Assembly: GCA_963699165.1 (NCBI GenBank)
Contig: OY969413.1
Span: 468,562-532,561 of the forward strand
Direction: 5' to 3'
Source of the DNA: Candidatus Kaiserbacteria bacterium
Lineage (GTDB): Bacteria; Patescibacteriota; Minisyncoccia; Phycocordibacterales; Phycocordibacteraceae
DNA: 64,000 nucleotides
In this document: one piece after another, positions 5,459 to 23,449 of the stretch
How positions within the stretch are numbered: the first letter of the stretch is position 1
Layout of the letters: every line of letters begins with the position of its first letter
Notes under the pieces: generated by a model
What the model was told of the DNA's origin: nothing
What the model saw: the letters and a program-made list of their open reading frames with translations, nothing else
The model's database searches: none
Made by a program: the position numbers and the translations under genes

Positions 5459-5483
5459 AGACCGAATATTACAAAATCTCTCT

Positions 5484-8876: not shown

Positions 8877-9890
8877 ATGTCGTTCATCTCCTACTCCTTC
8901 CTCGTCTTTTTCCCAGTCGTAACCATTTTATATTTTTGGACGCCCCAGCGCCTGCGCTGGGCTTTGCTTCTTTTTGCGAGCTGTATTTTTTACGTGGCCT
9001 TCATACCCGCCTATATTTTCGTGCTTTTCGGCCTCATTGCGGTCGATTACACCGCAGGCCGCCTGCTTGGAAAAGCAACAGGTGCGTATCGGAAATGCAT
9101 CCTTCTCGCGAGCGTCATATCGACCTGCGCGGTGCTACTCGTATTCAAATATTTCAATTTCGCAAACGAAAACATTGCCGCGCTATCCTCGTTCCTTCAT
9201 TGGAACTATTCGATTGCCGCATTGTCGCTTGCATTGCCGCTCGGACTTTCCTTTCACACGTTCCAGAGCTTGAGTTACGTCATCGAGGTGTATCGGGGCA
9301 AATTCAAGCCCGAACGACACTTCGGCATCTACGCGCTCTATGTCATGTTTTATCCGCAACTCGTCGCGGGACCGATTGAACGTCCGCAACATCTTCTGCC
9401 GCAATTTTATGAAAACCATGTTTTTGACTACGAGCGCGTAAAAACCGGACTCATCCGCATGGCATGGGGATTTTTCAAAAAGATGGCGATAGCCGACAAT
9501 CTCGCGATCATTGTGAATCCGATTTTTGCTAATCCGTCGCAGTACGGCAGCATCTCGCTTATCATCGCGAGCATCTGCTTCACTCTCCAAATATATTTTG
9601 ATTTTTCAGGATATTGCGACATCGCGCTCGGTGCGGCACAGGTGATGGGATTTACGCTGATGGAAAACTTCAATCGGCCGTTCGCGGCAAAATCAATCGC
9701 GGAGTTTTGGCGCCGTTGGCACATTTCGCTCTCATCGTGGTTCCGCGACTATTTTTACTACCCGCTCGTGCTTTCGCAAAAGAAAGTCACTCCTGCGAAA
9801 ATTTACGCGACTACCCTTTTTACGTTTTTAGTAACGGGTTTTTGGCATGGCGCGAACTGGACCTTCGGCATTTTCGGACTTCTGCACGGT
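8877..9890 (+). pseudogene. MBOAT-family membrane O-acyltransferase (AlgI/DltB-like), 3' end replaced by IS3 insertion
   Basis: Multi-TM protein with MBOAT His motif region WRRWHISLSSWFRDYFYYPL and FWHGANW; reading frame runs into the IS left inverted repeat at 9891 and stops after LLHGARYPKRR... Confidence 0.7.
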
Positions 9891-10064
9891 GCAAGGTACC
9901 CCAAACGTCGGACACTCATTCTAAATACCAGCAGCTAATTTAGAATGTACCTATGGCAAAGAAAGCATACCGTATTGCTCCTGAGATTAAGGAGCAGATT
10001 ATCAACCGTATCAAAAACGATGGCATCAGTGTCGCTGAGGCAGCGAAAGAACACGGAGTCAGTA
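9891..10064 (+). mobile_element. solo duplicated left end of the IS3-family element (IRL plus first ~37 codons of orfA)
   Basis: 174 bp identical to 10065-10238, by direct comparison. Confidence 0.8.
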
Positions 10065-10127
10065 TGCAAGGTACCCCAAACGTCGGACACTCATTCTAAA
10101 TACCAGCAGCTAATTTAGAATGTACCT

Positions 10128-10388
10128 ATGGCAAAGAAAGCATACCGTATTGCTCCTGAGATTAAGGAGCAGATTATCAACCGTATCAAAAACGATGGCA
10201 TCAGTGTCGCTGAGGCAGCGAAAGAACACGGAGTCAGTACCGTCACTATCTATGCTTGGCTTGGCACCTCTGCAAAAGGAGTGAGTATCATTGAGCACAA
10301 CAGAGTGAAGAAGGAGAACGGTCTCCTTAAAGCACTCATCGGAGAATTGACGTTTAAACTCTCAAACGGAGAAAAAAGGGGCTCTTGA
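10128..10388 (+). CDS. IS3-family transposase OrfA (HTH)
   Basis: MAKKAYRIAPEIKEQIINRIKNDGISVAEAAKEHGVS helix-turn-helix, leucine-zipper-like C-terminus. Confidence 0.85.
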   Translation: MAKKAYRIAPEIKEQIINRIKNDGISVAEAAKEHGVSTVTIYAWLGTSAKGVSIIEHNRVKKENGLLKALIGELTFKLSNGEKRGS

Positions 10389-11167
10389 TGAGAGAAAACA
10401 AGAGTGCTCTTGCACGCGAGAGCGGTATTGCTCGCAGTACGCTGTACTACGAGCCGAAGCAGGCTCGGAGGGATTGGCACACAAAGCAACTCATCGAAGA
10501 AGCTCTGCGTAGCCATCCCGCCTATGGGCACAAACGGTTGGCACTCTACCTCAAAGTCAACAAAAAGCGCATTCTGCGTGTGATGAAATTGTTCGGTATC
10601 AAACCATATCGGAGGACCGCAAAGAAGCGATTTGTGCTAAAGACAAAAGACAGTATATTCCCGAACTTCTTGCTCCATCAAACTCCCGAGCAGGACGGTG
10701 ACATCTGGGCGAGTGACTTCACCTACCTCAAGTACCACGGGTACTGGGTATACGTCGCTACCATCCTTGACGTCTATTCCCGAGAGATTGTCGGTGTGTC
10801 AGTCCTCACCACCCACAGCACGCAACTCATCATGAATGCACTTCTCTCTGCGCTACATCACAAATCGCCACCTCGTGTCATCCATTCGGATCAAGGCAGC
10901 GAGTATGCCTCAAAGGATTATGCGATGCTCGTGGCAACGATCGGCATACAGCAATCTATGTCTCGTCCTGGATGTCCCTGGGAGAATGGCTACCAAGAGT
11001 CCTTCTACAAAGGGTTCAAGATTGACCTGGGTGATCCGAACCGATTCGACACGTTAGGTGAATTAGTGGCTGAGATCTACCTCACCATCCACTATCACAA
11101 TACCGCTCGCATTCACTCAGCACTGCGTATGGCGCCAAGAGAGTTTGTTGCTCTGAGCAGAGCATAG
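10385..11167 (+). CDS. IS3-family transposase OrfB (DDE integrase core)
   Basis: rve motifs WASDFTY, HSDQGSEY, and the family-typical C-terminus. Confidence 0.85.
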   Translation: MMRENKSALARESGIARSTLYYEPKQARRDWHTKQLIEEALRSHPAYGHKRLALYLKVNKKRILRVMKLFGIKPYRRTAKKRFVLKTKDSIFPNFLLHQTPEQDGDIWASDFTYLKYHGYWVYVATILDVYSREIVGVSVLTTHSTQLIMNALLSALHHKSPPRVIHSDQGSEYASKDYAMLVATIGIQQSMSRPGCPWENGYQESFYKGFKIDLGDPNRFDTLGELVAEIYLTIHYHNTARIHSALRMAPREFVALSRA

Positions 11168-11225
11168 TATCCTATACTTATAGAATGAGTGTACGAAGAA
11201 AGGGGTACCTTCCATCGGAGAGGTT

Positions 11226-11993
11226 GTGAAGGAAATTCTTTTACGTAGAATTGAAAATTTTCCAGAGATAGGCGCGGAGATACGAAATGCACCATTCCAT
11301 AGTGCGTTTCTAGAATGTTTTAATGACCGATTAGGTTCATTGAATATTGAGACTCCCTACCTCGTAGCTATCGCGAGCTGGCTTCATGGCCTCAACACTT
11401 CTCTCGGTACTGGATTTGAGAATATTTCACATATTCTATCTGGTGGATATAAACGGAAATTTACTGATGCTTACCACCTTACAGTAAAAAGAGGTCAAGC
11501 TAATCATGTTGAAGAAATTATTCGAGATTTGAAGGCGGGTGTACATACACCTAATCTAGAACGAGAAAACGGGCTTGTTTTAAATTTCGATGCAAACGAT
11601 GGAGAAATAGATTCTTTACCATTTACTGTGGACACTTATATTGAGAGAGGAAATGAAATCATTGCCATTGAACTGAAATCGGTTAGACCTAACTCGGGCG
11701 AAGGTCGTGGAGAGAAGCAGAAGATACTTTATGGCAAGGCGGCTTTGAAGTTACAGAATCCAGATAAAGATATTCGCTTCTTAGTAGGATTTCCTTTTGA
11801 CCCCACATCTCCAACCCCTATTGGTTATGACAAAGCAAGATTCTTTGATTACTTGATTGAATTCAAAAAATTCTTCGCTGAGGACGAAGTGCTTATTGCC
11901 TCAGAATTTTGGGATTTCTTGAGTGGTAGCGAAAATACTATGGAGGAGATTCTTGATGTTATTGCAGAAACTGTCGCTCAGGTTAGAGGTTAG
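11226..11993 (+). CDS. hypothetical protein, possible PD-(D/E)xK nuclease (restriction-endonuclease-like), AT-rich
   Basis: Candidate catalytic core FTVDTYIERGNEIIAIELKS; GTG start; low GC suggests foreign origin; no methyltransferase adjacent. Confidence 0.4.
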   Translation: MKEILLRRIENFPEIGAEIRNAPFHSAFLECFNDRLGSLNIETPYLVAIASWLHGLNTSLGTGFENISHILSGGYKRKFTDAYHLTVKRGQANHVEEIIRDLKAGVHTPNLERENGLVLNFDANDGEIDSLPFTVDTYIERGNEIIAIELKSVRPNSGEGRGEKQKILYGKAALKLQNPDKDIRFLVGFPFDPTSPTPIGYDKARFFDYLIEFKKFFAEDEVLIASEFWDFLSGSENTMEEILDVIAETVAQVRG

Positions 11994-12124
11994 TGTCGTC
12001 ATTGACAGATTCAGAAAACAATCCCGAACGCAAAAAATGTAACCTTTTCAGGATTGATTGTTGTCATAATTTTATCTTTTATTTATTGCAAATGTACCAT
12101 GTCTAATAATTTTGGGCCAACCCG

Positions 12125-12733
12125 CTAAAAAGATCCGGTTTGAATATCTCCCGCGCGCTCATAGTTAGCGATGATGACCCCTTTGGGTGAGACCTTGCTG
12201 TCTCTAAGTTTAAGGGCAGCCGGAATTGTACCTTCAGCGAAGAGGCGCTTGCCGGTGCCAAGCATGATTGGGAATATCTTAAGCCACAATTCATCAATCA
12301 AGTCATGTTTCAGAAGTGTTTGGATGAAATTACCGCTCCCGTGAACTTGGAGTTCCGGCCCGTCCTCTTCTTTGAGTTTTTTGATCGCTTTTGGGATGTC
12401 GCCGTTCAGTACCACCGTCTTTTCCCATGAGGGACTGAACGGCGCATCAGAAGCAACATACTTTGTCGCTTTATTAATTCCATTTCCAATAACGTTGCCT
12501 GCTTCATTATGGTCCGGCCAGTAGCTAGCGAAGATGTCGTAAGTCTTTTTTCCAAGGAGAAGGTCGAACGGGTGACCCATTTGTTCAAACATGACCTTGC
12601 CCCCAAACTCATCCATATACGGGACGGTCCAGCCGCCGTATTTGAAACCGCCTGACGTGTCTTCTTCCGGGCCCCCGGGCGCCTGCATCACGCCATCGAG
12701 TGTGATAAAAGATAGAACAATGAGTTTTCTCAT
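12125..12733 (-). CDS. dihydrofolate reductase family protein (RibD C-terminal-like)
   Basis: N-terminus MRKLIVLSFITLDGVMQAPGGPEED and overall ~200-aa pattern of the bacterial DHFR-like family. Confidence 0.6.
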   Translation of the reverse strand: MRKLIVLSFITLDGVMQAPGGPEEDTSGGFKYGGWTVPYMDEFGGKVMFEQMGHPFDLLLGKKTYDIFASYWPDHNEAGNVIGNGINKATKYVASDAPFSPSWEKTVVLNGDIPKAIKKLKEEDGPELQVHGSGNFIQTLLKHDLIDELWLKIFPIMLGTGKRLFAEGTIPAALKLRDSKVSPKGVIIANYERAGDIQTGSF

Positions 12734-12756
12734 AGGGTTATTTTACACCACCGAGT

Positions 12757-12930
12757 AAAAATACCCGAAAGTTCGGTGTCCCTTCGCCCTATCTAGCTTT
12801 TCTAAAATCGTGCTGCGTAATAATGGCTACAAACAAGGCTCTCGGGTCTGTCCGATACAAAAGTCTTCGGGCGGTGGCATGGGGATCCGAACTGTCAGCA
12901 TAGTACCGATAAAAAGTACTGAGACATGGC
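12757..12930. repeat. direct-repeat copy 1 (about 90% identical to 23128-23300), ending with att-like core CATAGTACCGATAAAAAGTACT
   Basis: Direct alignment of the two regions; contains AGTAC-N9-GTACT inverted half-sites at 12902-12920. Confidence 0.7.
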
Positions 12931-13082
12931 TTAAAATATAAGTTTCCCTATAATCGAATATTCTAGAACTTTGGTTCGAATCCCCGACAGTTTTTTCCAA
13001 TGGGTAGTTTCATTCTCACAACAGAGTGATATGACAAACTCTCCCATCGTGGGAGAGTTTGTCCGTAGAGCTCAAAGAGAGA

Positions 13083-13856
13083 CTAGTTCGTCGTCGTGCT
13101 TTTCGGGGTGCCGAGGGACTTCAGTCCTTGGAGGATTGTTGTTATGTCAGCGCGAGCAGCCTTGAGATCGGAACTTGCGGTCTGGATATCGGCCTTCGCT
13201 GCAACGAGTGCTGCCTTGTTCGAGGCTGCAGTCGTCGTATTACCCTGGTCAGGAACGAGGCCGGATACGCCGCTCTGAGCTGATGCAGATTGCGTGTTTG
13301 CATCGGCGATCTTCGAATTCATATCGGTAAGGGCCGCAGTAAGCGCAGTCACATTGTCTCCTGCGGTTTGATCCGTAGTTATGCGTGCCTGTATCTTCGT
13401 ACCAAGTGTAGTCATGAGACCGGTAATGGTCGTAACACGATCAGCCGAAGCCAAGATCCATCCCTGCGGGATGACAAGTGCATAGATTCGGAATGTCGTG
13501 AATATTGTCGCCGCGTCGGTGCGAGCCGTGGCTGGTGTCGTGTCTGCATCGATCTTGGACTGCAATGCGGTCAATCCAGTTATATTAGTTTGGACTTGAG
13601 TCGAGATACTCGCCTTTTCCGTCGCCGATTCATTCGTCATTGCCTGGACACGAGTATTCAGCGCATTGAGCGACGTGATCCGCTGCGCGATATCGGAATT
13701 CGCCTTGGTAATGATCGCAGCGAGCCTTGTGGCGGAATTTGCGCCAGAGCCGGACGATGACGTCGCTGTTTGGGCATACGCCGGTGCTACGCTCAATAGC
13801 ATAGCTACGACAGCTGCTGCGCTGACAATCGAAACACCTATCTTTCTACTGTTCAT
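13083..13856 (-). CDS. secreted low-complexity T/S/A-rich protein with signal peptide
   Basis: MNSRKIGVSIVSAAAVVAMLLSVAPAYAQ signal peptide, then low-complexity sequence. Confidence 0.55.
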   Translation of the reverse strand: MNSRKIGVSIVSAAAVVAMLLSVAPAYAQTATSSSGSGANSATRLAAIITKANSDIAQRITSLNALNTRVQAMTNESATEKASISTQVQTNITGLTALQSKIDADTTPATARTDAATIFTTFRIYALVIPQGWILASADRVTTITGLMTTLGTKIQARITTDQTAGDNVTALTAALTDMNSKIADANTQSASAQSGVSGLVPDQGNTTTAASNKAALVAAKADIQTASSDLKAARADITTILQGLKSLGTPKSTTTN

Positions 13857-13952
13857 ATGTATGGTAATGCTAATATGATTCGTGATAATAATTGACCCTC
13901 TACATTCTTTAACGAATGAACTCCGAAAGTGTGACACGAACTACTTTGTTCC

Positions 13953-14339
13953 CTACTGACTGTTTAGACCCGCATTCGTGCTCGCGGAGTCCGAATTAAG
14001 CCCCCCCAATTGCGCATCGATACTTTGTGCATCTTGTTGCAAGGAAGCATCAGATGCTGAAGCAGCTGTCACCGGAGCCGATCCGGAGTTTCCAGTTGGA
14101 CCTGCCGGATTGCTCGGCGCAGCACCTTGCGATGTGGCCGCCGGAGATCCAGTAGTGTCACTCGGACTCAGTGTTCCAGACGGAGTCACACCGGGACTTT
14201 GCTCTGCCGAAGGACCTGAACCGGTCGGTGTGGCATTCGATACAGTCGAAGAACTATTCATGCCCATATACCACCAAATGCCGGCGCCTATAATCACGAT
14301 TAATACCAAAGCGATGATCCACTTTACTGTGCTTGTCAT
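13953..14339 (-). CDS. membrane-anchored low-complexity S/T/P/G-rich protein
   Basis: Single N-terminal TM WIIALVLIVIIGAGIWWYM, then low-complexity sequence. Confidence 0.5.
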   Translation of the reverse strand: MTSTVKWIIALVLIVIIGAGIWWYMGMNSSSTVSNATPTGSGPSAEQSPGVTPSGTLSPSDTTGSPAATSQGAAPSNPAGPTGNSGSAPVTAASASDASLQQDAQSIDAQLGGLNSDSASTNAGLNSQ

Positions 14340-14430
14340 ATGTATTTCACGATACGTTAAGTTTTTAAAAGATTCCCGATTTGCAACCCCATCCTAGAAT
14401 TATACATTGAAACTTTCAGCGAATGGGCGT

Positions 14431-14937
14431 TCATTGCGTTTCTGACGTCGCCTGCTGTACCGCTTGGTCAGCCTGGGTTTCGTCCGAATCAAGGTCTCCG
14501 ATCTGGGTATCGATCATCTGTGCATCCAGGTTCAATGAAGAATCCGATTCATCATTCGCGAGGGCGACGTGCGCATTCGAAACAGCGCCATGCGGTATAA
14601 TCAGGATACCGCCTCCCAAAACCGAGCCGCTTCCGAGAAGTACGAGTGCCAAGATGGCAAGTGACACGCTTATCTTCGAGCGCAAGAAGGATGATCGTCC
14701 CATAGTGCTCGGAATCGGAGTCGATATCGTCGCGAGGGTGGATCGCAGAAGCTCTGGAGAAGGCTGCACCGCCTGAGCGGACTCGAACGATTTGATTGAT
14801 TCGAAAAATTCTCGCAACTCAGTAACATGCGTCGGGTGCAAGTCGATGATTTCCTGTTCAGGGACGCCTGCATCGAGCATGCGTAATGCGACTTCGAAAA
14901 TATCTTCTTTTGTGTTTATGTAGTGTTCTTTTTTCAT
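14431..14937 (-). CDS. putative anti-sigma factor (single TM, cytoplasmic N-domain)
   Basis: Overlaps the ECF sigma stop (ATGA); one central TM segment; acidic extracytoplasmic tail. Confidence 0.55.
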   Translation of the reverse strand: MKKEHYINTKEDIFEVALRMLDAGVPEQEIIDLHPTHVTELREFFESIKSFESAQAVQPSPELLRSTLATISTPIPSTMGRSSFLRSKISVSLAILALVLLGSGSVLGGGILIIPHGAVSNAHVALANDESDSSLNLDAQMIDTQIGDLDSDETQADQAVQQATSETQ

Positions 14938-15503
14938 ATGGTACTTGATACAGACTCCTCTTTCATCATACTCCTGAGTATGCGCAGACCCCGAGATTGC
15001 AACTGCCGAACGGCGACCTCACTCTTCCCCAGTATGGTTGCAATTTCAGAGGACGAAAGCCCATCAATGAACCGCAGCACGAGTGCATCCTGCTGATCCT
15101 GTGGGAGCTTGGCAATCTTCTGCCTGAGCGACCTACCATCATCCTTCATTGCAGCCATGGCCTCGGCGTTCTCAGAATCATCCGGTATACCCTCGAAGAA
15201 TTCATCGTCTGCGCGCACCGTCTTTTTCTTACGATAATGATCGATGATGCAGTTGCGAGCGACCGTATAAAAGAACGCGAGCGGAGATTTCCCTGATGAG
15301 ACATACCTTGGAAATGACTCATACGCCTTGAGGAACGATTCCTGTGTCAGATCCGCAGCATCGGACTCATCGGAGACACGGAAGTATATATAGCGATACG
15401 GCGGCGTGAAATATGCCTCATACAGCACTGTAAAAGCCTCGGATTCACCGAGTCGCGCGCGACGAATCAGGTCCTCGACATTTTCCGGGTCGATTTTCTT
15501 CAT
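14934..15503 (-). CDS. RNA polymerase ECF-type sigma-70 family factor
   Basis: Region 2 (YRYIYFRVSDESDAADLTQESFLKAY) and region 4 (LSSSEIATILGKSEVAVRQLQSRGLRILR) signatures. Confidence 0.85.
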   Translation of the reverse strand: MKKIDPENVEDLIRRARLGESEAFTVLYEAYFTPPYRYIYFRVSDESDAADLTQESFLKAYESFPRYVSSGKSPLAFFYTVARNCIIDHYRKKKTVRADDEFFEGIPDDSENAEAMAAMKDDGRSLRQKIAKLPQDQQDALVLRFIDGLSSSEIATILGKSEVAVRQLQSRGLRILRSMMKEESVSSTI

Positions 15504-15685
15504 GGTCTATGAGTATAACGGAATACCGGGAATTTTGTGACAATCGCGATTAATAGCACATTTGAGAGCACCCTTACGATGTCTGATGTCCATAAAAGCG
15601 CTACAAACTCAAATGGCTCAAATCCCTGAGCGGTCTCTAGATTTTCCCGAGAAGCGTGATATAACCGGTGCTTAAAATATGGCTC

Positions 15686-15709
15686 GGCATAGCACCGATA
15701 AAAACTACT
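15686..15709. other. att-like core site copy 2 (CATAGCACCGATAAAAACTACT), immediately outside inverted repeat IR-A
   Basis: Alignment with 12895-12920 and 23334-23357; flanking TAAAATAT box is shared with the copy at 23312. Confidence 0.5.
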
Positions 15710-15711
15710 AC

Positions 15712-15912
15712 GGGCGGTGTGTATTGAACGAAGTTCGAATGTATTTTGAATTGAATCCTGATGACCAATGATGCGCGCCTCGGACACGCTCGCGGACTCG
15801 CGTGTGCAAAAACCAAAAAATTTCCTTACATTTTTCCCGCGCCTCCTCCCCCCACCCCTCCGCCGCGAAGCGGAAAAAGAAATGGAAAGGAAATTTTTGG
15901 TTTTGCTTCGCC
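15712..15912. repeat. IR-A: 201-bp perfect inverted repeat (partner 17592-17792)
   Basis: Reverse complement of 17592-17792 is identical base for base; contains a polypyrimidine tract CCTCCTCCCCCCACCCCTCC. Confidence 0.9.
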
Positions 15913-16122
15913 GTTTCAGTCTCCGAAAAGAGCAATCTTATTTTAACATTTTTGTTTGCTCTTTTCTCCACCCTCACGGCGACCGAGGCGCTTCCTCTCC
16001 GCGTTTAGTGGTAGCTCTAGGGTTCGTGGCTTCGTTCGCTGGTCGTGGTAACTCATAAAGCGGATTGTGCATGGCACAAACAAATCTGTTTGTGCTTGCC
16101 CCGCCCGCCCTGTGCGCGCACA

Positions 16123-16163
16123 AATCCCCGCCGTTTTTAGGAGATATTATAAAACGGCGGGGA
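16123..16163. terminator. bidirectional stem-loop downstream of the Fic gene
   Basis: ATCCCCGCCGTTTT-N13-AAAACGGCGGGGAT perfect 14-bp stem. Confidence 0.5.
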
Positions 16164-16171
16164 TTGCTCCC

Positions 16172-17275
16172 TTACTTGCGAAAAACACTTTTGATAGCAA
16201 CATCTTCTCCTTCCTTAGTTTTCATTTTGTGATTTTCTGGATTCGCAAAAATATCAATCATGCTTTCAATAAACTTCGTTTTTACTTCTTTGTGAATTTC
16301 AATCAATCGGCGGGCGTCGTCTTCGGTAAGATTAGGCATAAGTTCTTCGGCATCAATCCCAGCAATTTTTTTGCCAACATCTTCGGGCACGACGCCCCGC
16401 CTTTCATCAAGTGGTTGTTTTACCTGATATTGATATTTTTGCAAATCAGTTTTTTCACTAAGAAATTTTGAAAGCACAATACCTCTAAAAGAAAAATTAT
16501 TTACATCGCCTTCGCCGAGGACTTTCTCGGCTAAAGTTGCTTCTTCGGGCGATAATTTTCCTTTTACGGCTTCCGACAAAAAACCAACACCAGAAGCGGA
16601 GGCAACATATATACTTCCATTTTCTTGAAGAAAATTATCGCCTAAAATTTCTTTGGCGACTTCACGATTTATGTAATAGTACGCACTATTAGCGTCCAAG
16701 ACTTTCTCCGCGAAAACATCTCGTCCTTTTCCAGTTCCACCATGACCCTCTTTGTCGTGATCTAAAAGTTCAGAAAGTTTTTCCTCTGTAAGTTCCTTGC
16801 CGTCCTCGGAAATTATTTCGTGAAGTAATCTTCCTGTTCTTCCGTTTCCGTCAGAATATGGATGTATGGCTTGAAGTGCGTAGTAAGTTAAAAGCGCGCG
16901 GTCTTCGTTATCTGGTATTTGTTTGAGTGCATCAAAACTTTCTCTCATCAAGCCGTCTTTCTGCTCGGCCGCTGGTGGGAGATATGAAATATCTCCCATA
17001 ATGCCAAAAGAAACTTCAACACCACTTCCGTCTACCGCACGCTTCTTTATCGGTACTTCGCGCAAGATTCCATTTAAACGAGTGAGATAATTTGTATAGT
17101 CTTCGTAAGAAAGTTTTTGAAGCCACTCATCAAACTGCTCGTCAGATTTTCTAACATCCAAAAATTTTGTGCGGTCCAAAAACTCAAAAACTTTCTTACC
17201 AGTTTCAAGTTTTTCCTCCACGGGTTCTTGTTTTTCTTGACGAGGAGTAGGTTGTGGGAATGATTCCATGCTCAT
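16172..17275 (-). CDS. Fic-family protein (AMPylation-type FIDO domain)
   Basis: Fic motif HPYSDGNGRTGRLL. Confidence 0.85.
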   Translation of the reverse strand: MSMESFPQPTPRQEKQEPVEEKLETGKKVFEFLDRTKFLDVRKSDEQFDEWLQKLSYEDYTNYLTRLNGILREVPIKKRAVDGSGVEVSFGIMGDISYLPPAAEQKDGLMRESFDALKQIPDNEDRALLTYYALQAIHPYSDGNGRTGRLLHEIISEDGKELTEEKLSELLDHDKEGHGGTGKGRDVFAEKVLDANSAYYYINREVAKEILGDNFLQENGSIYVASASGVGFLSEAVKGKLSPEEATLAEKVLGEGDVNNFSFRGIVLSKFLSEKTDLQKYQYQVKQPLDERRGVVPEDVGKKIAGIDAEELMPNLTEDDARRLIEIHKEVKTKFIESMIDIFANPENHKMKTKEGEDVAIKSVFRK

Positions 17276-17300
17276 AAATGTATTTTATCAGTTTTAATAA

Positions 17301-17513
17301 TTATTTCAAAAGTTCATCGCTCGCAACTCCTAACGCTTGAGCGATTTTTTCAATAGTAGAAAGTGTCGGGTTGCCCTTGCCAGCCTCGATATTACTCATT
17401 TGAGCGCGATCAAATCCGAGAGCACGACAAATGTCGCCTTGCGACATTTTCTTCCGCTCCCGTATGCGTTTGATGTTTTTTCCAAGCTTTATTGACGAAG
17501 TTTTCATATTCAC
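17301..17513 (-). CDS. XRE-family HTH transcriptional regulator (Cro/C1 type)
   Basis: 70 aa; LGKNIKRIRERKKMSQGDICRALGFDRAQMSNIEAGKGNPTLSTIEKIAQAL. Confidence 0.8.
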   Translation of the reverse strand: MNMKTSSIKLGKNIKRIRERKKMSQGDICRALGFDRAQMSNIEAGKGNPTLSTIEKIAQALGVASDELLK

Positions 17514-17591
17514 AGCTTGTATTCTAGCAGTTTGTTGTGTCCTATATCAATAATGTGATATATTACAATAGATGATGAATGATTTTATAAC

Positions 17592-17792
17592 GGCGAAGCA
17601 AAACCAAAAATTTCCTTTCCATTTCTTTTTCCGCTTCGCGGCGGAGGGGTGGGGGGAGGAGGCGCGGGAAAAATGTAAGGAAATTTTTTGGTTTTTGCAC
17701 ACGCGAGTCCGCGAGCGTGTCCGAGGCGCGCATCATTGGTCATCAGGATTCAATTCAAAATACATTCGAACTTCGTTCAATACACACCGCCA
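17592..17792. repeat. IR-A': inverted partner of 15712-15912
   Basis: Perfect reverse-complement identity. Confidence 0.9.
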
Positions 17793-17910
17793 AAATTCGG
17801 AATCAGAAGAAACGGACAAAGCGGGGTCGCGCCGAAGGCGCGACACTAATGCATTCCCCCCGCCGAATCCAGAATCCAAAAGGGTTTTCCACGCTCCGCG
17901 TGGCTCGTCG
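17793..17910. repeat. IR-B: 118-bp perfect inverted repeat (partner 19341-19458), directly abutting IR-A'
   Basis: Reverse complement identical to 19341-19458. Confidence 0.9.
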
Positions 17911-17927
17911 TTTGCCAATACAATTCT

Positions 17928-19583
17928 ATGAATAATCAAACCAAAAAGTTTTTCATATATACTCGCAAGTCTACGGACGACAAAGACAGACAAGTCCGCA
18001 GTATTTCTGACCAACTTTCAGAGTTAAAGGAGTTAGCGTTGAAAGAACAACTGGAAGTGGTAGATGTCTTTGTCGAAAAGCAGACCGCCAAAATACCAGG
18101 TCGCCCTGTGTTTAATGAAATGATAGAGCGTATGGAAAAAGGCGAAGCGTCTGGTATTTTGGCGTGGCATCCCGATAGACTTGCGAGAAACTCGGTAGAT
18201 GGAGGAAAAATCATCTACCTCGTTGATACTGGCGTAATCGTAGAGATGAAATTTCCAACTTTTTGGTTTGATCCGACACCGCAAGGGAAATTCATGCTCT
18301 CAATCGCTTTTTCGCAATCCAAGTATTATGTGGATAATTTAAGCGAGAACATTAAGCGCGGACATAGAAACAAAGTGAAGGAAGGAATATGGCCTCAAAT
18401 GTCTCCGATTGGATATGTGAACGAGAAAGGAAAAGGTATCGTGCCACATCCCGAGCTTGCTCCACTTGTCCGTAAGACATTTGAGGCATATTCAACTGGA
18501 AACTTCACTTTGCGGGAAGTCCGCGACAAATTTAATGGTCTTGGATTGAAGCGAAAAAGCGGTAGAGAGCTTGCGGTGTCGAATTATCAAAAACTTCTCA
18601 AAAATCCTATTTACACTGGTCTAATGAGGTATAACGGAGAGATTTTTGAGGGCAAGCACGAACCGATTATTTCAAAGAAACTTTTTGATACAGTACAAGA
18701 AGTGATGAGCCGAAAATCTAAACCGCATAGCAAAGGCTTGAAGCCATATATCTATCGCGGATTTTTCCGTTGTGGAGAGTGTGGTTGTTTCATTACCACC
18801 GAGCAACAAAAAGGTCATAACTATCTCCGCTGTACCAAACGGAAAAATCCTTGCTCACAGAAATATGTTCGCGAGGAGCTCATCACTTCTCAAATTCAAG
18901 AAGAAATCAAAAAAGTTTCTTTGCCTCTCGATTGGACGGAATGGATGATTGCCGAAAATGCAAAAGATCGGCAATCGGAAGTCCAGTCGAGTGAGATTTT
19001 TTCTCAAAAAATTCAAAATGAAATTTCTCTTTTGGATTCAAAAATAGAGAAGCTGATGAGTGCCTACCTCGAAAGTGCGTTGTCACTTGAAGAATATCGC
19101 GAAGCTAAAAACAAGTTGGTTAACCAAAATCAGCTTCTCAAAGAGAAATTAATAGCTTTTGAGAAAAAATCTCATAATCGGTTCGAACTTACCGAAAAGT
19201 TTTTGAAATACAATATGGAATTGGCAAACGACCGAACAAATGAGGAAAATACTCATTTGTTCAAAAAAGTCGGTTCGAACTTTCAAATTAAGGATCGAAC
19301 CGTACTTTTTGAGCCACGCGGAGCGTGGAAAACCCTTTTGGATTCTGGATTCGGCGGGGGGAATGCATTAGTGTCGCGCCTTCGGCGCGACCCCGCTTTG
19401 TCCGTTTCTTCTGATTCCGAATTTTGGCGGAGGCGAAGAGATACGAACCCGACGGGTCGCACCTTCGCCCTATGGCTTACATCCTCAGTATTTTATTTCT
19501 GCTGCTCGGTTCGAATCTCGGCGGGGGTTCCATGTCATGCCTCATGGTTAGGTGATAAGAGCTACTCGGGACGGTGGACGTAA
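17928..19583 (+). CDS. large serine recombinase (resolvase domain, recombinase domain, zinc ribbon)
   Basis: N-terminus YTRKSTDDKDRQVRSISDQ (catalytic Ser region), CGECGCF zinc ribbon, C-terminal coiled-coil; the frame continues into IR-B', so the true stop may be earlier. Confidence 0.85.
   Translation: MNNQTKKFFIYTRKSTDDKDRQVRSISDQLSELKELALKEQLEVVDVFVEKQTAKIPGRPVFNEMIERMEKGEASGILAWHPDRLARNSVDGGKIIYLVDTGVIVEMKFPTFWFDPTPQGKFMLSIAFSQSKYYVDNLSENIKRGHRNKVKEGIWPQMSPIGYVNEKGKGIVPHPELAPLVRKTFEAYSTGNFTLREVRDKFNGLGLKRKSGRELAVSNYQKLLKNPIYTGLMRYNGEIFEGKHEPIISKKLFDTVQEVMSRKSKPHSKGLKPYIYRGFFRCGECGCFITTEQQKGHNYLRCTKRKNPCSQKYVREELITSQIQEEIKKVSLPLDWTEWMIAENAKDRQSEVQSSEIFSQKIQNEISLLDSKIEKLMSAYLESALSLEEYREAKNKLVNQNQLLKEKLIAFEKKSHNRFELTEKFLKYNMELANDRTNEENTHLFKKVGSNFQIKDRTVLFEPRGAWKTLLDSGFGGGNALVSRLRRDPALSVSSDSEFWRRRRDTNPTGRTFALWLTSSVFYFCCSVRISAGVPCHASWLGDKSYSGRWT
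19341..19458. repeat. IR-B': inverted partner of 17793-17910, overlapping the 3' end of the recombinase ORF
   Basis: Perfect reverse-complement identity. Confidence 0.9.
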
Positions 19584-21914
19584 ATCAAATTTTGATTCGA
19601 TAATCTTCATCCCTTCGCCCACCTGCATCCAGAAGAACGCCCAGAGCCAAATAAATGCAGCGAGCGAGAGCGGGATAGCTGTGACGAAGAGGCCAAAGAC
19701 AGCAAACGCGGTTGCTAAGATTTGCGTGAGCGAAGTCGCCCATATGATGCTCTTGGCTGGCAGGAACTTCCACCACCGTTCTTTGGTATGAGCGACATAG
19801 ACGAGCATGTGGCCGGAGACGGTCAGCTTAAGGAAGAATGCGGTCTGAATAATCGCGAGCGGCAGATGGAAAACCTCAGCAAGCAAGAAATACATGAGGA
19901 GACTGTTGGCGACGCCCACGAGGCCGAAGAGTGTTCCGAGCGTGAAGCGTTCGCGGGGCGCGAGATCGGCGGGTCGGTCGGCGCGCTTCACGCGGTCGAA
20001 GGCGAGCGTGATGATAGGAATGTCGTTAAGAAATGCGAGCAGAATAATCTGCACCGGAGTCAGCGGGAATCCTTTGATGATGAGGCCGAGTACAAGCGCA
20101 GTGACGATGAGACGGAAGCTCTCGCTGATGCGATAGACGGAATAGTTATAGAGGCGGAAAAAGATTTTGCGCGCCTCGGTGAGCGCGATCTGCATCACCG
20201 AGATGCCGGAGTCCAAGAGGACGATATCGGCAGTGCCTTTCAAGGCATCGACCGCATTGGCAACCGCAATGCCGACATCAGCCTTGCGTACGGCGGGCAG
20301 GTCGTTCACGCCGTCGCCGGTTGCGGCGACGATGTAGTGCTTTTGCGCGGCCGTCACGAGCGCGAGTTTGTCTTCAGGCGAGACCTCGGCGAAGGCGGCG
20401 GTCGTCGCGAAGATGTTGGCAGGTAGATGTGCGAGATCGAGATCCTTTGTTCGGATGACATTGCCCATGAGCCCAAGCGTTGCGGCGACATGCGTGGCGG
20501 TCTCCTTCGTGTCGCCAGTGACCATAATCGCATCAACGCCTTCGTCTTTAAGGAAACGAAGGGTCTCTTTCGCATCGGCGCGAAGCGGGTCGGCGAGAAC
20601 GAGCATACCGATGAGGCTCATGCCGTGCTCGTCCTCGATGCCCGACGGGTCTTTCTTGATCGCCACCGCTATCGCACGGGAGCCATCCTTGCTGGCGGCG
20701 TCCGTGTCACGATGCACGGTCTCTACGAGGCCGTCGAGCGGTGCACATAAGCCCTCGATGACTGGCGGCGTCCCGATAGATACGACGTAGCGAGTGCCGT
20801 CGTGCTCCAAAAGGGCTGTAGTGCGCTTCCTGGTCGAGTCGGCAGGGATTGAGGCAAGCACGCGATAGTCGGCGACACCGGCCTCGGGCGCGGCGCGGAT
20901 GATTGCTGCATCGATGGCACTCGCCGCCTCGGGGCCCGCTGCTGCGGCTGCATACGCACGCAGCAGCGCTTCAGAGAACTGCGCGTAGGCATGGACGCGC
21001 TCGACGGATATTTTGTTCTCCGTGAGCGTGCCCGTCTTATCGGTGAGCAGGAGCGAGACATTCGCGAAGTCTTCAAGGGAGGAGAGGCGGCGCACCAATG
21101 CTTTCTTGGCCGCCACCGCCAGCGCTCCAATCGAGATAATGAGCGTCATCACGGTCGGCAGAGAGACCGGTATGCCCGCAATGAGGAGCGAGAGATCGAG
21201 GATAAGTATGCTTGCAATCGGCTGACCGTCGAGAATGAAGATGATTGTAAGGATTACGACGGCAATCAAGCTCGCGATGATGAGATAGCGCGAAATGGAG
21301 AGAATGTCGCGCTCCATGCTCGACTTCCGCTTTCCTTCCTTTCCTGCGGAAGCAATCTTACCGAAGAATGCTTGATTGCCGATTGCAGAGACAGTGCCAG
21401 TGAAGTTGCCCGTCACGACGACCGACCCCGAGTATGCGGTATCGCCGACTTTTTTCTCCTTCGGGAGCGACTCGCCGGTGAGCACCGCTTCATTTATTTC
21501 AAGATTGATCGCTTCGTCGATGCACGTGTCGGCCGTCACCAGTGCGCCGACGCCGCATTCGATGACATCCCCCACTACAAGATTGTGCGACGGAACGTTC
21601 TCCCATGCGCCATCGCGCAGCACCTTCGCCTCCACCGAGAGCTGAGAGCGCAGTGCTTCGAGCGCGTTGTCGGCCTTGCGCGTGTGCCAGAGCGTCATGC
21701 CGACGTTCAGCGCCAAGAGCGCGAGGATGAACCACCCGTCAAACTGTTGGCCAATATAGAAGGAGAGCGCTGATGCAACGATAAGCATTAGCGACGCCGG
21801 CGAGGCGAGTGCCTTGAGGAGTTTGACGAATGCGCTTGGCCGCTTCTCAACTATTTCGTTGGGCCCATACTTCGCTAACAAACGGCCCGCTTCTGCGGAT
21901 GAGAGTCCTACCAT
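19548..21914 (-). CDS. cation-transporting P-type ATPase
   Basis: TGES, DKTGTLTEN phosphorylation motif, GDGVNDLPA hinge; 10 TM-like segments. Confidence 0.85.
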   Translation of the reverse strand: MVGLSSAEAGRLLAKYGPNEIVEKRPSAFVKLLKALASPASLMLIVASALSFYIGQQFDGWFILALLALNVGMTLWHTRKADNALEALRSQLSVEAKVLRDGAWENVPSHNLVVGDVIECGVGALVTADTCIDEAINLEINEAVLTGESLPKEKKVGDTAYSGSVVVTGNFTGTVSAIGNQAFFGKIASAGKEGKRKSSMERDILSISRYLIIASLIAVVILTIIFILDGQPIASILILDLSLLIAGIPVSLPTVMTLIISIGALAVAAKKALVRRLSSLEDFANVSLLLTDKTGTLTENKISVERVHAYAQFSEALLRAYAAAAAGPEAASAIDAAIIRAAPEAGVADYRVLASIPADSTRKRTTALLEHDGTRYVVSIGTPPVIEGLCAPLDGLVETVHRDTDAASKDGSRAIAVAIKKDPSGIEDEHGMSLIGMLVLADPLRADAKETLRFLKDEGVDAIMVTGDTKETATHVAATLGLMGNVIRTKDLDLAHLPANIFATTAAFAEVSPEDKLALVTAAQKHYIVAATGDGVNDLPAVRKADVGIAVANAVDALKGTADIVLLDSGISVMQIALTEARKIFFRLYNYSVYRISESFRLIVTALVLGLIIKGFPLTPVQIILLAFLNDIPIITLAFDRVKRADRPADLAPRERFTLGTLFGLVGVANSLLMYFLLAEVFHLPLAIIQTAFFLKLTVSGHMLVYVAHTKERWWKFLPAKSIIWATSLTQILATAFAVFGLFVTAIPLSLAAFIWLWAFFWMQVGEGMKIIESKFDLRPPSRVALIT

Positions 21915-21929
21915 TCTCCCAATTCTAAC

Positions 21930-22346
21930 TTATTTCTTGAATGCGAAATGGAAACTGGAATACGAAAGGTATCCGGGTATGATGACGCCGAGCCACGAGA
22001 GCCAGAGCGGGATGGATACCTCGCCGAGGATAAGATTCCAGCCGAAGGCGATGCGAACTAGGTGAAGCAGGGCGACGATGAGGAAGGCGAGCCCGACCAC
22101 CTTCAACAGGCCGCGCTCAGTCGGCGATTTGATCGGCAGCTTCATGTTCCAGCTGTAGTGGGCAAGGAGCAAGATGAGCACGAGATCGAAAACGATGCCG
22201 GGCCATATCGCGCTCGCGTTCCAGGCGATGCCGAGAATCGTGACCGGCAAGAGCCCCGAGCCCGAGAGCCACAGGGCACAAATAATGTCGGCGATGACGA
22301 GGCCAACGGCGACTTTCGCCAGTTCACGTAAGAAGTGGTGGTGCAT
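21930..22346 (-). CDS. hypothetical integral membrane protein
   Basis: Four hydrophobic segments, no motif recognised. Confidence 0.45.
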   Translation of the reverse strand: MHHHFLRELAKVAVGLVIADIICALWLSGSGLLPVTILGIAWNASAIWPGIVFDLVLILLLAHYSWNMKLPIKSPTERGLLKVVGLAFLIVALLHLVRIAFGWNLILGEVSIPLWLSWLGVIIPGYLSYSSFHFAFKK

Positions 22347-22373
22347 ACCTCTTAAGTATGCCTTGCCCTCCGA

Positions 22374-22556
22374 TTATTTCCACCTATACAAGTGCACAGC
22401 GATGTACATCGCGAGCATCCCAAGGAGGAAGCCCGCGCACACCGTGACAACGTCGTGGAAGGGCACCCAAATGATTCCAAACCATGAGCAGGCGAGAATA
22501 ATCGCCCATACAACGGCGACTCCGATTACGTACACATAGAGCGGGCGCTTGTTCAT
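22374..22556 (-). CDS. small hypothetical membrane protein
   Basis: 60 aa, two TM segments; ATGA overlap with the upstream ORF. Confidence 0.35.
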   Translation of the reverse strand: MNKRPLYVYVIGVAVVWAIILACSWFGIIWVPFHDVVTVCAGFLLGMLAMYIAVHLYRWK

Positions 22557-22804
22557 GAGTGTGTGCTATCACTTTTTTGCGCTCTCCACTTCACAATAAA
22601 AAGAGCTAGAGCACCTGTGACCCAGGCGATTAACAACCCGACTCCTACGCCACGAAAATAGGCATTCCCGGCACTATACCCAATCACAAAGAACACCGCG
22701 CACAGGACAAGCTCAAGTAATACGAGTTTTACGAGGGTCGAGCGCCATGTGTCCATAGTGTCGTAATTGTAGCATAGTTCGATACCGCTTAATTCCAAGC
22801 CCAC
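22553..22804 (-). CDS. small hypothetical membrane protein
   Basis: Two TM segments; start ambiguous (internal Met at 22756). Confidence 0.4.
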   Translation of the reverse strand: MGLELSGIELCYNYDTMDTWRSTLVKLVLLELVLCAVFFVIGYSAGNAYFRGVGVGLLIAWVTGALALFIVKWRAQKSDSTHS

Positions 22805-22820
22805 TTGTTATACTAAATAA

Positions 22821-23123
22821 ATGAAGGTCTCTTCCGGAACGGTACATACTCTGCCCGCAGATCTGAAGAAGGCACTTGCCGCTTCTCCGGGAGCGCTCGC
22901 AGCATGGGAGGACATCTCACCACTTGCGCGCAATGAGTGGATTTGTTGGACCATTTCGGTCAAGCAAGAGGCAACCCGAAAGGACCACGTAAAGAGGGTG
23001 GTCTCGGAACTCCTCGAGGGGATGCGCCGACCGTGTTGTTGGATAGGATGCATTCATAGAACTGACAAATCAATCAGCCCGTCGATACGAGGAATTCTCG
23101 ATAAACGAGCGAAGCGAAAGTAG
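22821..23123 (+). CDS. YdeI/OmpD-associated-like small protein
   Basis: Pattern WEDISPLARNEWICWTISVKQEATRKDHVKRVVSELLEG resembles the YdeI family; not verified. Confidence 0.4.
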   Translation: MKVSSGTVHTLPADLKKALAASPGALAAWEDISPLARNEWICWTISVKQEATRKDHVKRVVSELLEGMRRPCCWIGCIHRTDKSISPSIRGILDKRAKRK

Positions 23124-23127
23124 ACGA

Positions 23128-23362
23128 GCGGAAAAGTTCGGTGTCCCTTCGCCCTATCTAGATTTTCTAAAAACGTACTGTGTAATAACGGCCAAGAATA
23201 AAGCTCTCGGGTCTATCCGATACTAAAGTCTTCGGGCGGGGGCGCAGTCATTCGAACCGTCAACATAGTACTAAGCCCTCACACAGAAGGCGCAGAGATT
23301 CGAACTAAAAATACGTTGTAAAATATAGGTTTCAACATACTACCGATAAAAAGTACTACCTG
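23128..23362. repeat. direct-repeat copy 2 plus tRNA-3'-fragment debris, ending with att-like core copy 3 at 23334-23357, abutting the tRNA-Ser 3' end
   Basis: Alignment with 12757-12930; internal T-arm-like fragments GCGCAGAGATTCGAACT and CAGTCATTCGAACCGTC. Confidence 0.65.
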
Positions 23363-23449
23363 CGGAGGCGGAGAGATTCGAACTCTCGAGAGCCTTTCGA
23401 CCCTGCCGCCTTTCCAAGGCGGTGCACTAGACCACTATGCGACGCCTCC
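23363..23449 (-). tRNA. tRNA-Ser (anticodon GGA)
   Basis: Manual fold: acceptor GGAGGCG/CGCCTCC, anticodon loop TTGGAAA, long variable arm, T-loop TTCGAAT; CCA not encoded. Confidence 0.85.

Follow-up and report, generated by a model that had tools for sequence, protein, structure and literature searches.

Which parts of the DNA downstream of the tRNA-Ser(GGA) gene of a Candidatus Kaiserbacteria genome are mobile, and by what means, is the question raised by the 64,000-nt stretch of contig OY969413.1 (positions 468,562 to 532,561) that is analysed here as a whole and is referred to as the window. The host is a Patescibacteria (Paceibacteria/Minisyncoccia-type) genome, and the region in question contains a short core sequence in three copies, perfect inverted repeats (IRs), a gene for a serine recombinase and two blocks of genes that include those for an ECF sigma factor and a P-type ATPase. 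An earlier note on this DNA proposed two tandem elements (12.9-15.7 and 15.7-23.3 kb), with the core as attachment (att) site and the recombinase as the integrase of the 7.6-kb right element. The present analysis leads to a different picture, in which a 3.7-kb element that encodes the recombinase (15713-19430) is the only demonstrable mobile element of the region, its attP site appears to lie within the recombinase gene itself, and a spare, inverted copy of this site is carried inside the element. Taken as a whole, this account of the boundaries, the gene-embedded attP and the spare copy is, in our view, likely to be the best explanation of the locus.

Boundaries and organization of the recombinase element

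The recombinase has the three-domain architecture of large serine recombinases (LSRs), with Pfam matches to PF00239 (6e-20), PF07508 (4.6e-16) and PF13408 (1.5e-07); its matches in the PDB include SPbeta SprA (the best, 1.5e-07) and the A118 integrase. The other two genes of the element encode an XRE/C-protein-like regulator and a Fic-domain cargo protein (Table 1), and no candidate for a directionality factor is present among the three genes. A promoter-like site for the XRE gene was detected at 17550-17521 by a promoter scan, which found no good promoter for the LSR gene inside the repeat arms. The repeats form two pairs, namely IR-A/IR-A' (pair a), which brackets the cargo, and IR-B/IR-B' (pair b), which brackets the LSR gene. 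The sequence GGCGG is found at both ends of the element (15713-15717 and 19426-19430). The comparison of base composition suggested in the earlier note for the entire 12.9-23.3 kb bears out a distinct composition for the recombinase element, with a G+C content (GC) of 0.426 against 0.53 in the backbone, the respective values for the ECF and ATPase blocks being 0.501 and 0.562.

The search for an empty site in related genomes, also proposed earlier, was successful. In the loci L157-L159, which were located via their 87%-identical ATPase, DNA that is collinear with window positions 23222-19426 at 84% nucleotide identity (from the repeat unit C near the tRNA gene through the OmdA-like gene, the small open reading frames (ORFs) and the ATPase gene to a remnant of the tRNA-Ser 3' end) continues, after ...CGCCTCCGCC, straight into the trailer CGAAGACTTTAGTATCGG, with no recombinase element in between. 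For the window element, the predicted empty-site sequence is ...CTCTTCGCCTCCGCC|CGTAGTAGTTTTTATCGG, and removal of 15718-19430 in silico leaves a sequence that is collinear with the uninterrupted tRNA-Ser gene and trailer of L041 (92/115) and L032 (106/145). A clean insertion is likewise evident in L012 compared to L027, L035, L036 and L056. Homologues of the LSR that are 80%, 44% and 40% identical to it lie beside tRNA-Ser and converge on the tRNA gene in L023, L012 and L044, respectively, and window positions 19311-19449 are homologous to the tRNA-proximal region of L023. These sequence comparisons place the insertion exactly at CCGCC, the terminal bases of the acceptor strand in the tRNA, in what appears to be an old copy of the target that consisted of the tRNA remnant at 19431-19475 and trailer unit B.

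A large family with a common architecture

In a scan of metagenomes, 80 loci encoding recombinases 45-92% identical to the window LSR were analysed, and a protein search retrieved at least 7311 protein clusters (E <= 1e-30), so the family is very large; it is uncharacterised and abundant in Patescibacteria. It is absent from the viral contigs of IMG/VR, where no close relative was found (best match, 37% identical), and its LSRs show at most 30% identity to any recombinase in phage or plasmid collections. A tRNA gene converges on the 3' end of the LSR gene in 54 of the 64 informative loci; in 47 of these 54, it is a tRNA-Ser gene, with all four anticodons represented, and in the rest, which are distant members, tRNA-Leu, tRNA-Gly or tRNA-Asp.

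The repeat pair b around the recombinase gene is about 100-150 nt long and mostly 98-100% identical, and the pair a around the adjacent cargo spans 90-420 nt. The inner arms of the two pairs abut, with an overlap of 4-9 nt, and the outer arm ends coincide exactly with the ends of the element in 15 complete elements. The core that is shared by attP and attB amounts to 5 bp (GGCGG) in the window and to 4-9 bp over these 15 elements; long direct repeats are absent. The consensus for attP is ...CAATTTTGGCGG|TGTGTATTGGACGAAGTTCGAATG, the right half of which mimics the acceptor stem and T-arm of the tRNA. The internal junction between the arms is the reverse complement of the joined element ends and therefore represents an intact inverted copy of attP, which in the window comprises 318 nt (a and b arms together) between the LSR and XRE genes. 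Because this internal copy is kept, both the LSR and the cargo segments are bracketed by near-perfect inverted repeats. The identity of the b arms within an element is high (median 100%, with 20 of 36 pairs perfect), whereas that between elements is low (median 53%), which implies concerted evolution of the two arm copies.

An XRE/C-protein-like gene is found beside the LSR gene in 33 loci and is divergently oriented in 31 of these, the remaining two being flipped. The cargo consists mainly of methyltransferases, restriction enzymes, Mrr, GmrSD and similar defence genes, and no genes for transfer, replication or a directionality factor are evident in the family elements. Restriction-modification and other defence genes are carried between genomes by these elements, which also explain assembly breaks next to tRNA-Ser genes.

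Given that both segments are surrounded by perfect inverted repeats, that both orientations exist, and that the invertase Hin likewise lies inside its own invertible segment, the locus could be viewed as a domesticated phase-variation switch, that is, a resident and immobile invertase that flips the Fic/XRE and recombinase segments. Such a switch is, however, hardly tenable: it is refuted by the empty sites, with presence/absence polymorphism at exact junctions, and the members of the family are located at many different tRNA genes, including tandem arrays, with variable cargo, a GC (0.43) that differs from that of the backbone (0.53), and a three-domain LSR in place of a small Hin-type invertase.

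Tandem pairs of LSR elements are present in three loci (L076, 103-7191; L087, 1-11400; L155, 1403-6562), in which the distal b' arm is joined directly to the proximal a arm in a hybrid, attP-like junction. Several other arrangements were observed. In L098 (1600-2060), a tRNA 3' remnant of about 57 nt, resembling that at 19431-19475 in the window, separates the b' arm of one element from the b-end and a arm of the next; this locus was considered as a circular excised form, which was ruled out given that it is a complex array with the tRNA remnant between two elements. In L109 (33-1940), the LSR segment is located between two different tRNA-Ser genes in inverted orientation (gct, 33-123, plus strand; tga, 1851-1940, minus strand); such a pattern would arise from recombination of the internal attP copy with another tRNA gene, which would invert a stretch of the chromosome. 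Finally, in L154 (7787-9575), an inverted repeat of 195 nt (the b arm and part of the a arm) surrounds the gene for an LSR of full length (518 aa); this locus has no tRNA gene nearby, lies at the end of a 257-kb contig and fits neither the standard nor the flipped nor the tandem form.

The attP site within the recombinase reading frame

The conserved part of the LSR protein extends to residue 461 (19310), a position that coincides exactly with the inner boundary of the b arm. Beyond this point, no stop codon interrupts the LSR frame anywhere within the b arm (98-147 nt) in 33 of 36 elements, and in 30 of the 36, the crossover is reached in frame 0. In a circular form, or once the LSR segment is inverted, the frame runs on across attP for another 15-19 codons that encode a conserved tail with the motif C-[VLF]-L-D-[KE]-V-R-x-[YF]-F-x-x-N-P and is then closed by a stop codon. 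The protein at the junction reads ...FWR|C(V/L/F)LD(K/E)VR(M/T)(Y/F)FxQNP..., with the GGCGG crossover within the Trp-Arg codons. In the window, the tail consists of 17 aa and the LSR with its native tail would have 518 aa; the native tail is encoded in IR-A at 15718-15771, which is followed by a large palindromic hairpin (15809-15904). The tail is covered by about 21 of the 120 best database homologues.

The LSR frame crosses attP, and therefore integration exchanges the tail for residues encoded by the antisense strand of the tRNA gene. Integrated elements in the usual orientation have ...WR|RGWDSNPR... in place of the tail, and in the window, residues 502-551 of the 551-aa product (RRRDTNPTGR...) come from the antisense tRNA remnant. 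The predicted recombination site is thus located inside the reading frame of the integrase, which integration would disrupt.

The tail shows the signature of a coding sequence. Its diversity at codon positions 1/2/3 is 0.22/0.15/0.38, compared to 0.18/0.10/0.40 in the catalytic domain (aa 1-160) and to nearly flat values (0.38/0.37/0.44) in the b-arm linker. Among 18 distinct tails, the ratio of nonsynonymous to synonymous polymorphism (pN/pS) is 0.38 in the LSR frame, which has no stops, and 0.60-1.55 in the five other frames.

Segment orientation and a possible mechanism

In six loci, a co-directional tRNA gene is located upstream of the LSR gene, that is, the LSR segment is flipped relative to the usual arrangement. 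In a flipped segment, the reading frame enters the internal attP copy and, judging from the sequences, regains the conserved tail; the complete tail is encoded in L092 and L153, both of which are flipped. In L153, the orientation is unambiguous because the arms are only 77% alike. The LSR and cargo segments are each found in nature in either orientation. A complete tail is also available in tandem arrays, where the distal LSR takes it from the a arm of the neighbour.

For the window element itself, an NCBI contig, JBAPNL010000114.1 (GCA_049279115.1), is 100% identical to window positions 34394-19311 (15 kb) and then runs via IR-B' into 17787-18337 in forward direction, which corresponds to inversion of 17907-19310 relative to the window; the contig ends there. 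This arrangement would fit a population with mixed orientations but is suggestive only, and the firm cases of inversion are those in other genomes, such as L153.

The perfect repeats call for caution with regard to assembly. Many contigs break at the repeats, short k-mers cannot orient perfect repeats, and the tail overlaps the P half-site that mimics the tRNA end, so that the repeats and orientations might be assembly artefacts, the conservation of the tail that of an attP half-site in the DNA, and the element an ordinary LSR element with attP just downstream of the gene. We consider this very improbable. More than 35 contigs, which stem from projects and assemblers that are unrelated, show the same two abutting repeat pairs; among them are contigs of 390-490 kb and three NCBI metagenome-assembled genomes. 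Sequence differences between elements are mirrored in both arms. Furthermore, the open frame through b arms of different length in nearly all elements, the three-base periodicity and low pN/pS that are specific to the LSR frame, and the diverged arms of L153, with its unambiguous flipped orientation, are all at odds with an artefact.

These observations are compatible with a functional role of the tail exchange. If the tail matters for activity or stability of the enzyme, integration via the gene-embedded attP would remove it and so disable or alter the LSR, and the element would be locked at its site. The enzyme would be re-armed when the LSR segment inverts, whether through homologous recombination over the 100-150-nt arms or through the LSR itself, and the direction of recombination could be controlled without a separate directionality factor. 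Two attP copies in inverted orientation would be present on an excised circle. Either might serve for integration, and integration through the other attP of the circle would likewise be expected to give an active enzyme. Self-limiting integration with re-arming by inversion is a tentative reading, which we regard as possible but somewhat short of an even chance. The wider proposition, that a family of mobile defence elements steers its own serine integrase without an accessory factor through a tail that is essential, lost on integration and restored by inversion onto the spare attP, is slightly more doubtful still. If it is true, the family would be the first counterpart of the archaeal 'suicidal' integrases among bacterial serine recombinases, and also the first of this type to possess a repair switch of its own.

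Several points weigh against this interpretation. No observation demonstrates a requirement for the tail in recombinase activity. Some of the conservation of the tail concerns the DNA itself, given the overlap with the P half-site of attP, and the coding signal derives from only 15 codons and 18 distinct sequences. The truncated orientation accounts for about 90% of the assembled copies, which fits a locked state but would also fit a neutral tail. The AlphaFold2 model of the full-length LSR (from an 18-sequence alignment) suggests, with low confidence, that the tail is a helix and, with a mean predicted local distance difference test (pLDDT) score of 47.7, is too poor to place it. No circular junction or excision product was observed. 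The contig JBAPNL010000114.1, which is from the same strain, is weak evidence for live inversion because a short-read assembler can orient a segment between perfect 120-nt repeats arbitrarily. Lastly, the LSR element does not account for how the ECF and ATPase modules and the multiple trailer copies arose.

The structure could also hold while the internal attP copy serves another purpose. Under one variant, a transformed single-stranded element would fold on its two repeat pairs and rebuild a double-stranded attP; the repeat pairs abut exactly at the crossover, so that, geometrically, the folded strand would align the element ends on a continuous template. Alternatively, the internal copy, which sits between divergent genes, might be an operator that lets the LSR repress its own gene and the divergent XRE gene, or it might allow flipping of the excised circle in the manner of the 2-micron plasmid. 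The elements lack transfer, replication and directionality-factor genes, which is in line with such other uses. However, none of the variants explains the conserved in-frame tail and its return in flipped copies, no circular or single-stranded form was seen, and an operator would not require 318 nt of perfect identity. Such alternative roles are unlikely in our estimate, and we prefer the reading in which the internal copy is a spare end that supplies the tail.

The repeated core and the modules downstream of tRNA-Ser(GGA)

The 22-nt core CATAGTACCGATAAAAAGTACT is present in the window in exactly three copies, all in direct orientation, at 12899-12920 (copy A, no mismatches), 15688-15709 (copy B, two mismatches) and 23336-23357 (copy C, one mismatch); with up to three mismatches allowed, there is no fourth site in the 64 kb, and none is expected from 100 shuffles. 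Copy C is separated from the end of the tRNA-Ser(GGA) gene by 4 nt and copy B ends 3 nt short of the start of IR-A (15713). The three copies and their placement at the tRNA gene and at the edge of IR-A were thus correctly described before, although the extended similarity between copies B and C, given as about 45 bp, is real but modest (44 nt, 75% identity).

The role assigned to the core did not stand. The sequence ACTTTTTATCGG (up to one mismatch) is found right after tRNA-Ser in 6 of 57 relatives and weaker versions of it in six more. The trailer of L032 is almost identical to copy B and its surroundings for about 90 nt, and the core motif forms the 5' half of a terminator-like hairpin that is followed by a T-run. 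Because the motif directly follows tRNA-Ser in relatives, the core is the conserved native 3' trailer of tRNA-Ser(GGA) and not a crossover or binding site. The crossover is predicted to fall in the 5-bp sequence CCGCC, with which the tRNA gene ends, immediately upstream of the core, and copy B does lie at an element junction, as the target-side half of attR. The inverted half-sites AGTAC-N9-GTACT, noted earlier as resembling a recombinase binding site, are perfect in copy A but are not kept in copies B and C or in relatives and were rejected in this capacity. More generally, a repeated 'att-like' core next to a tRNA gene can be just the own trailer of the tRNA, duplicated together with former target sites.

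At least five trailer copies are present in the window, four of which are attached to partial tRNA-Ser 3' ends. Of the T-arm-like fragments reported near the tRNA gene, the one at 23288-23306 matches tRNA positions 66-84 and that at about 23240-23262 positions 67-88; the remnant at 19431-19475 (positions 46-88, adjoining IR-B') and the fragment at 12870-12895 had been missed. The direct repeat that was described as about 174 nt with about 90% identity exists but is a 139-nt repeat (12768-12906 and 23133-23271) with 85% ungapped identity, which reaches into the core only over a 13-nt deletion in copy C. Its start is another variant of a tRNA 3' fragment with trailer, like those in L007 and L008, and diverged cores are located within both copies (12852-12866 and 23217-23231). 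Trailer unit C, which is homologous to the trailers of L007 and L008 and to positions 333-429 of L157, forms one boundary of the ATPase block. In an Rfam search of 9-27 kb, the tRNA was the sole match (56 bits), and the 139-nt repeat corresponds to no known RNA.

The DNA downstream of tRNA-Ser(GGA) is a hypervariable insertion hotspot, in which old copies of the tRNA-Ser 3' fragment with trailer split the region of 12.77-23.36 kb into modules. The pair formed by an M48 peptidase gene and tRNA-Ser(GGA) is syntenic in about 60 related genomes, and neither the ATPase nor the ECF block was found downstream of tRNA-Ser in any of 68 relatives. The ATPase block ends in tRNA-Ser 3' repeats on both sides (the remnant at 19431-19475 and the fragment in unit C), both of which are kept in L157, and recurs as a unit in L157-L159; an empty site for it was not found among the relatives. 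By analogy, it looks like an integrase-less island of the cis-mobilizable kind present in the Dehalococcoides ssrA arrays (PMC3146451). The ECF block, between trailer units B and A, was not found elsewhere in homologue searches, and there is no case for its mobility because the closest homologues of its 257/284-aa protein lie in ordinary chromosomal contexts. No recombinase domain was detected in either block (12921-15620 and 19476-23132). An empty tRNA-Ser site with the left flank of the window was not found either: no gene from window positions 1-17000 is located within 10 kb of tRNA-Ser in the 68 relatives. To the left of unit A, there are a RibD_C gene, a TdeIII-type restriction enzyme, an IS3 element and low-GC DNA, and the variable region probably extends further left than previously delineated.

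The model of two tandem elements with the 22-nt core as att site accordingly appears very unlikely, notwithstanding the three direct core copies, one at the tRNA end and one at IR-A, the tRNA fragments close by and the documented precedent of serine-recombinase tandem accretion at a tRNA-like gene in the Dehalococcoides ssrA islands (PMC3146451). Family elements end at the outer edge of each arm (a and b), where a 4-9-bp core (GCGG) is shared and the 22-nt core is missing, and the recombinase element ends on the right at 19430, beside the tRNA remnant. L157-L159 contain the ATPase block with both flanking repeats and no LSR element, so that the P-type ATPase gene belongs to a separate unit (84% nucleotide identity in a genome without the recombinase element) and the model is contradicted by the empty site of L157. 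The core is a native trailer in insertion-free relatives, no CCGCC or tRNA-like half-site is present beside copy A, which is thus not supported as an element end, and no sign of mobility was found for the ECF block (12.9-15.7 kb). What survives of the proposal is the existence of tandem modules at an insertion hotspot and the assignment of the serine recombinase as the integrase for this tRNA end, within an element that spans 15713-19430 and not 15.7-23.3 kb.

Two further observations concern the surroundings of tRNA-Ser in relatives. An inverted copy of the tRNA-Ser 3' end is located 60-160 nt downstream of the gene in 12 of 57 relatives (among L004-L071), often after a terminator hairpin, and many contigs of relatives stop within 150 nt of tRNA-Ser.

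Table 1. Features of the tRNA-Ser(GGA) region, in order from the tRNA gene; coordinates refer to the window
Feature	Coordinates	Strand	Evidence and remarks
Intact tRNA-Ser(GGA)	23362-23449	-	ARAGORN; Rfam tRNA, 56 bits
Trailer copy C1 (core copy C), native-type, directly 3' of tRNA	23334-23361	-	Same motif after tRNA-Ser in L007, L016, L018, L019, L032, L041
Partial tRNA-Ser 3' copy (positions 66-84)	23288-23306	-	Alignment to tRNA
Trailer unit C: tRNA fragment (67-88), diverged core 23217-23231, inverted T-arm-like end	23133-23271	-	139-nt repeat partner of unit A
ATPase block, island without integrase, bounded by tRNA-3'/trailer repeats	19476-23132	-	Pfam; collinear with L157-L159, 84% nt including flanking repeats; GC 0.562
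OmdA-like ORF	22821-23123	+	Within ATPase block
138-aa ORF	21930-22346		Within ATPase block, with small ORFs
P-type H+-ATPase	19548-21914		Within ATPase block
Degenerate tRNA-Ser 3' remnant, 43 nt (positions 46-88); B half of attB	19431-19475	-	Kept in L157, where the trailer follows directly
Complete LSR integrative element, 3718 bp including one GGCGG copy	15713-19430	.	Empty-site comparisons, family junctions, GC
IR-B', outer b arm: LSR variable linker (aa 462-501), P' side of attL, ends at crossover	19311-19430	+	Repeat search, alignment, family junctions
LSR ORF as in window, 551 aa (P0001)	17928-19583	+	Pfam Resolvase, Recombinase, Zn_ribbon_recom
IR-B, inner b arm, identical (100%) to the reverse complement of 19311-19430; 21 nt between its end and the LSR start codon	17787-17906	+	Repeat search
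IR-A', inner a arm; with IR-B, intact reverse-complement attP copy, crossover 17787-17791	17589-17791	+	Repeat search, family junctions
Putative spare tail-coding segment, CVLNEVRMYFELNPDDQ and stop	17733-17786	-	In frame with LSR if 17907-19310 inverted; flipped relatives L092, L153 carry tail
XRE/C-protein-like helix-turn-helix regulator, divergent from LSR	17301-17513	-	Pfam; PADLOC control protein
Fic-domain cargo gene (SoFic-like)	16172-17275	-	Pfam Fic 4.9e-09; PADLOC SoFic 3.2e-12
IR-A, outer a arm, 203-nt perfect repeat; outer end mimics tRNA 3' end (P side of attR)	15713-15915	+	Repeat search
Trailer unit B (core copy B 15688-15709); B' half of attB	15621-15712	-	Terminator-like hairpin 15698-15684; 92/115 versus uninterrupted L041
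ECF block: ECF sigma factor 14934-15503, 168-aa, 128-aa and 257/284-aa ORFs	12921-15620	-	Pfam; GC 0.501
Core copy A (12899-12920) and trailer unit A (tRNA fragment 12870-12895, diverged core 12852-12866)	12768-12920	-	Beside RibD_C gene

Other features of the window

The TdeIII-type restriction endonuclease gene (11226-11993) lies in low-GC DNA (0.45) and has no obvious methyltransferase gene adjacent to it; enzymes of the same family are also found as cargo in LSR elements of other genomes. Next to it is an IS3-family element (9890-11215; orfA, 10128-10388; orfB, 10385-11167; terminal repeats, 10064-10098 and 11181-11215). The left end of the latter, together with its flank, is contained in a perfect 175-nt tandem repeat (9890-10064 and 10065-10239) that overlaps the 3' end of an MBOAT ORF and could be either a real duplication or an assembly artefact.

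The region 33268-34925, downstream of the transfer-messenger RNA (tmRNA) gene (32864-33268), contains a terminator hairpin, inverted pieces that resemble the tmRNA 3' end, and a family of repeats (33337-33449 and 33619-33731, 94% identical; 33428-33486 and 34812-34870, 98% identical; 34698-34735 and 34884-34921). The motif ...GGGGTCGnGCAAATT...AATTATGCGTGACCGAnTCTC is also found after tRNA-Ser in L006, L015, L053 and L069. This is a second, different family of repeats or elements that is tied to tRNA-like 3' ends. The tag peptide of the tmRNA predicted by ARAGORN, VGKQTCQEHSCKREVAVLRYA, is unlike those of relatives (…SPYFG…FAYA…), and the resume codon may have been mis-called. Finally, five copies of a 69-nt repeat (TAACTCTCCCnCTTGCCrTGrAGGAGGAGGTCGAGGGCGT...), 630-1500 nt apart, are present at 57878-61499, within the low-GC region of 52-61 kb (about 0.45).

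Comparison with known systems

A self-truncating integrase design with a built-in spare end appears to be undescribed and is common in Patescibacteria; our literature searches did not turn up a serine-integrase element that combines an attP in its own reading frame with an internal inverted copy of attP. Few mobile elements have been characterised in the Candidate Phyla Radiation, and the present family gives base-pair-resolved att sites for dozens of members. For genome engineering, the targeting of tRNA 3' ends, the gene-embedded attP and the apparent lack of a directionality factor could make these enzymes new orthogonal tools, and the family may offer a new principle for the control of recombination direction.

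The placement of a recombinase gene within a segment bracketed by inverted repeats, with both orientations present, is shared with Hin. However, Hin is a small serine invertase with a C-terminal helix-turn-helix that, like Gin, differs from the present 518-aa LSR with its arms of 100-420 nt, acting as it does on 26-bp sites with an enhancer. The predicted circle with two long inverted repeats and two invertible arcs is reminiscent of the yeast 2-micron plasmid, whose FLP is, in contrast, a tyrosine recombinase on a replicating plasmid; neither Hin nor FLP integrates at tRNA genes.

The Dehalococcoides ssrA islands, with a CcrB-like integrase, a second small recombinase and exact 20-bp repeats (PMC3146451), are similar to the locus analysed here in the tandem arrangement of islands past a tRNA-like gene with 3'-end repeats between them, in the adjacent serine recombinase and in the lack of an integrase in some islands. 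Here, however, the repeats have 61-85% identity, extend over some 100 nt of trailer and are not generated by the LSR element. In mycobacteriophages of clusters G, N and P, immunity depends on integration, by a tyrosine recombinase, in the course of which the repressor loses a degradation tag (PMC9262239). These phages resemble the present elements in the location of attP within a gene, in the alteration of a C-terminus by integration at a tRNA gene and in the lack of a directionality factor, but the affected gene is that of the repressor and there are no inverted duplicates.

With known serine-integrase elements and phages (phiC31, Bxb1, A118, SPbeta SprA, TnpX, CcrAB), the family shares the three-domain LSR (Resolvase, Recombinase and a Zn-ribbon with coiled coil), precise insertion, the small number of bases common to attP and attB, and an attP located beside the integrase gene. 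It differs from them in the target, which is the extreme 3' end of a tRNA gene, in the attP within the reading frame and its internal inverted duplicate, in the lack of an evident directionality-factor gene, and in the identity of at most 30% to LSRs of phages and plasmids.

A parallel to the disruption of the integrase gene is provided by the SSV-type 'suicidal' integrases of archaeal viruses and plasmids, which are tyrosine recombinases of hyperthermophilic archaea whose gene is split into two inactive pseudogenes (PMC7253208). In both cases, the site lies within the integrase frame and integration into a tRNA gene disrupts the integrase gene; in the present family, unlike the SSV-type systems, the enzyme is a bacterial serine recombinase that loses only a tail of 15-19 aa, and a spare inverted copy can, as predicted from the flipped loci, restore this tail. 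Self-disrupting integrases are otherwise known from archaea, and here the paradox that they pose comes with a possible solution, the spare inverted copy.

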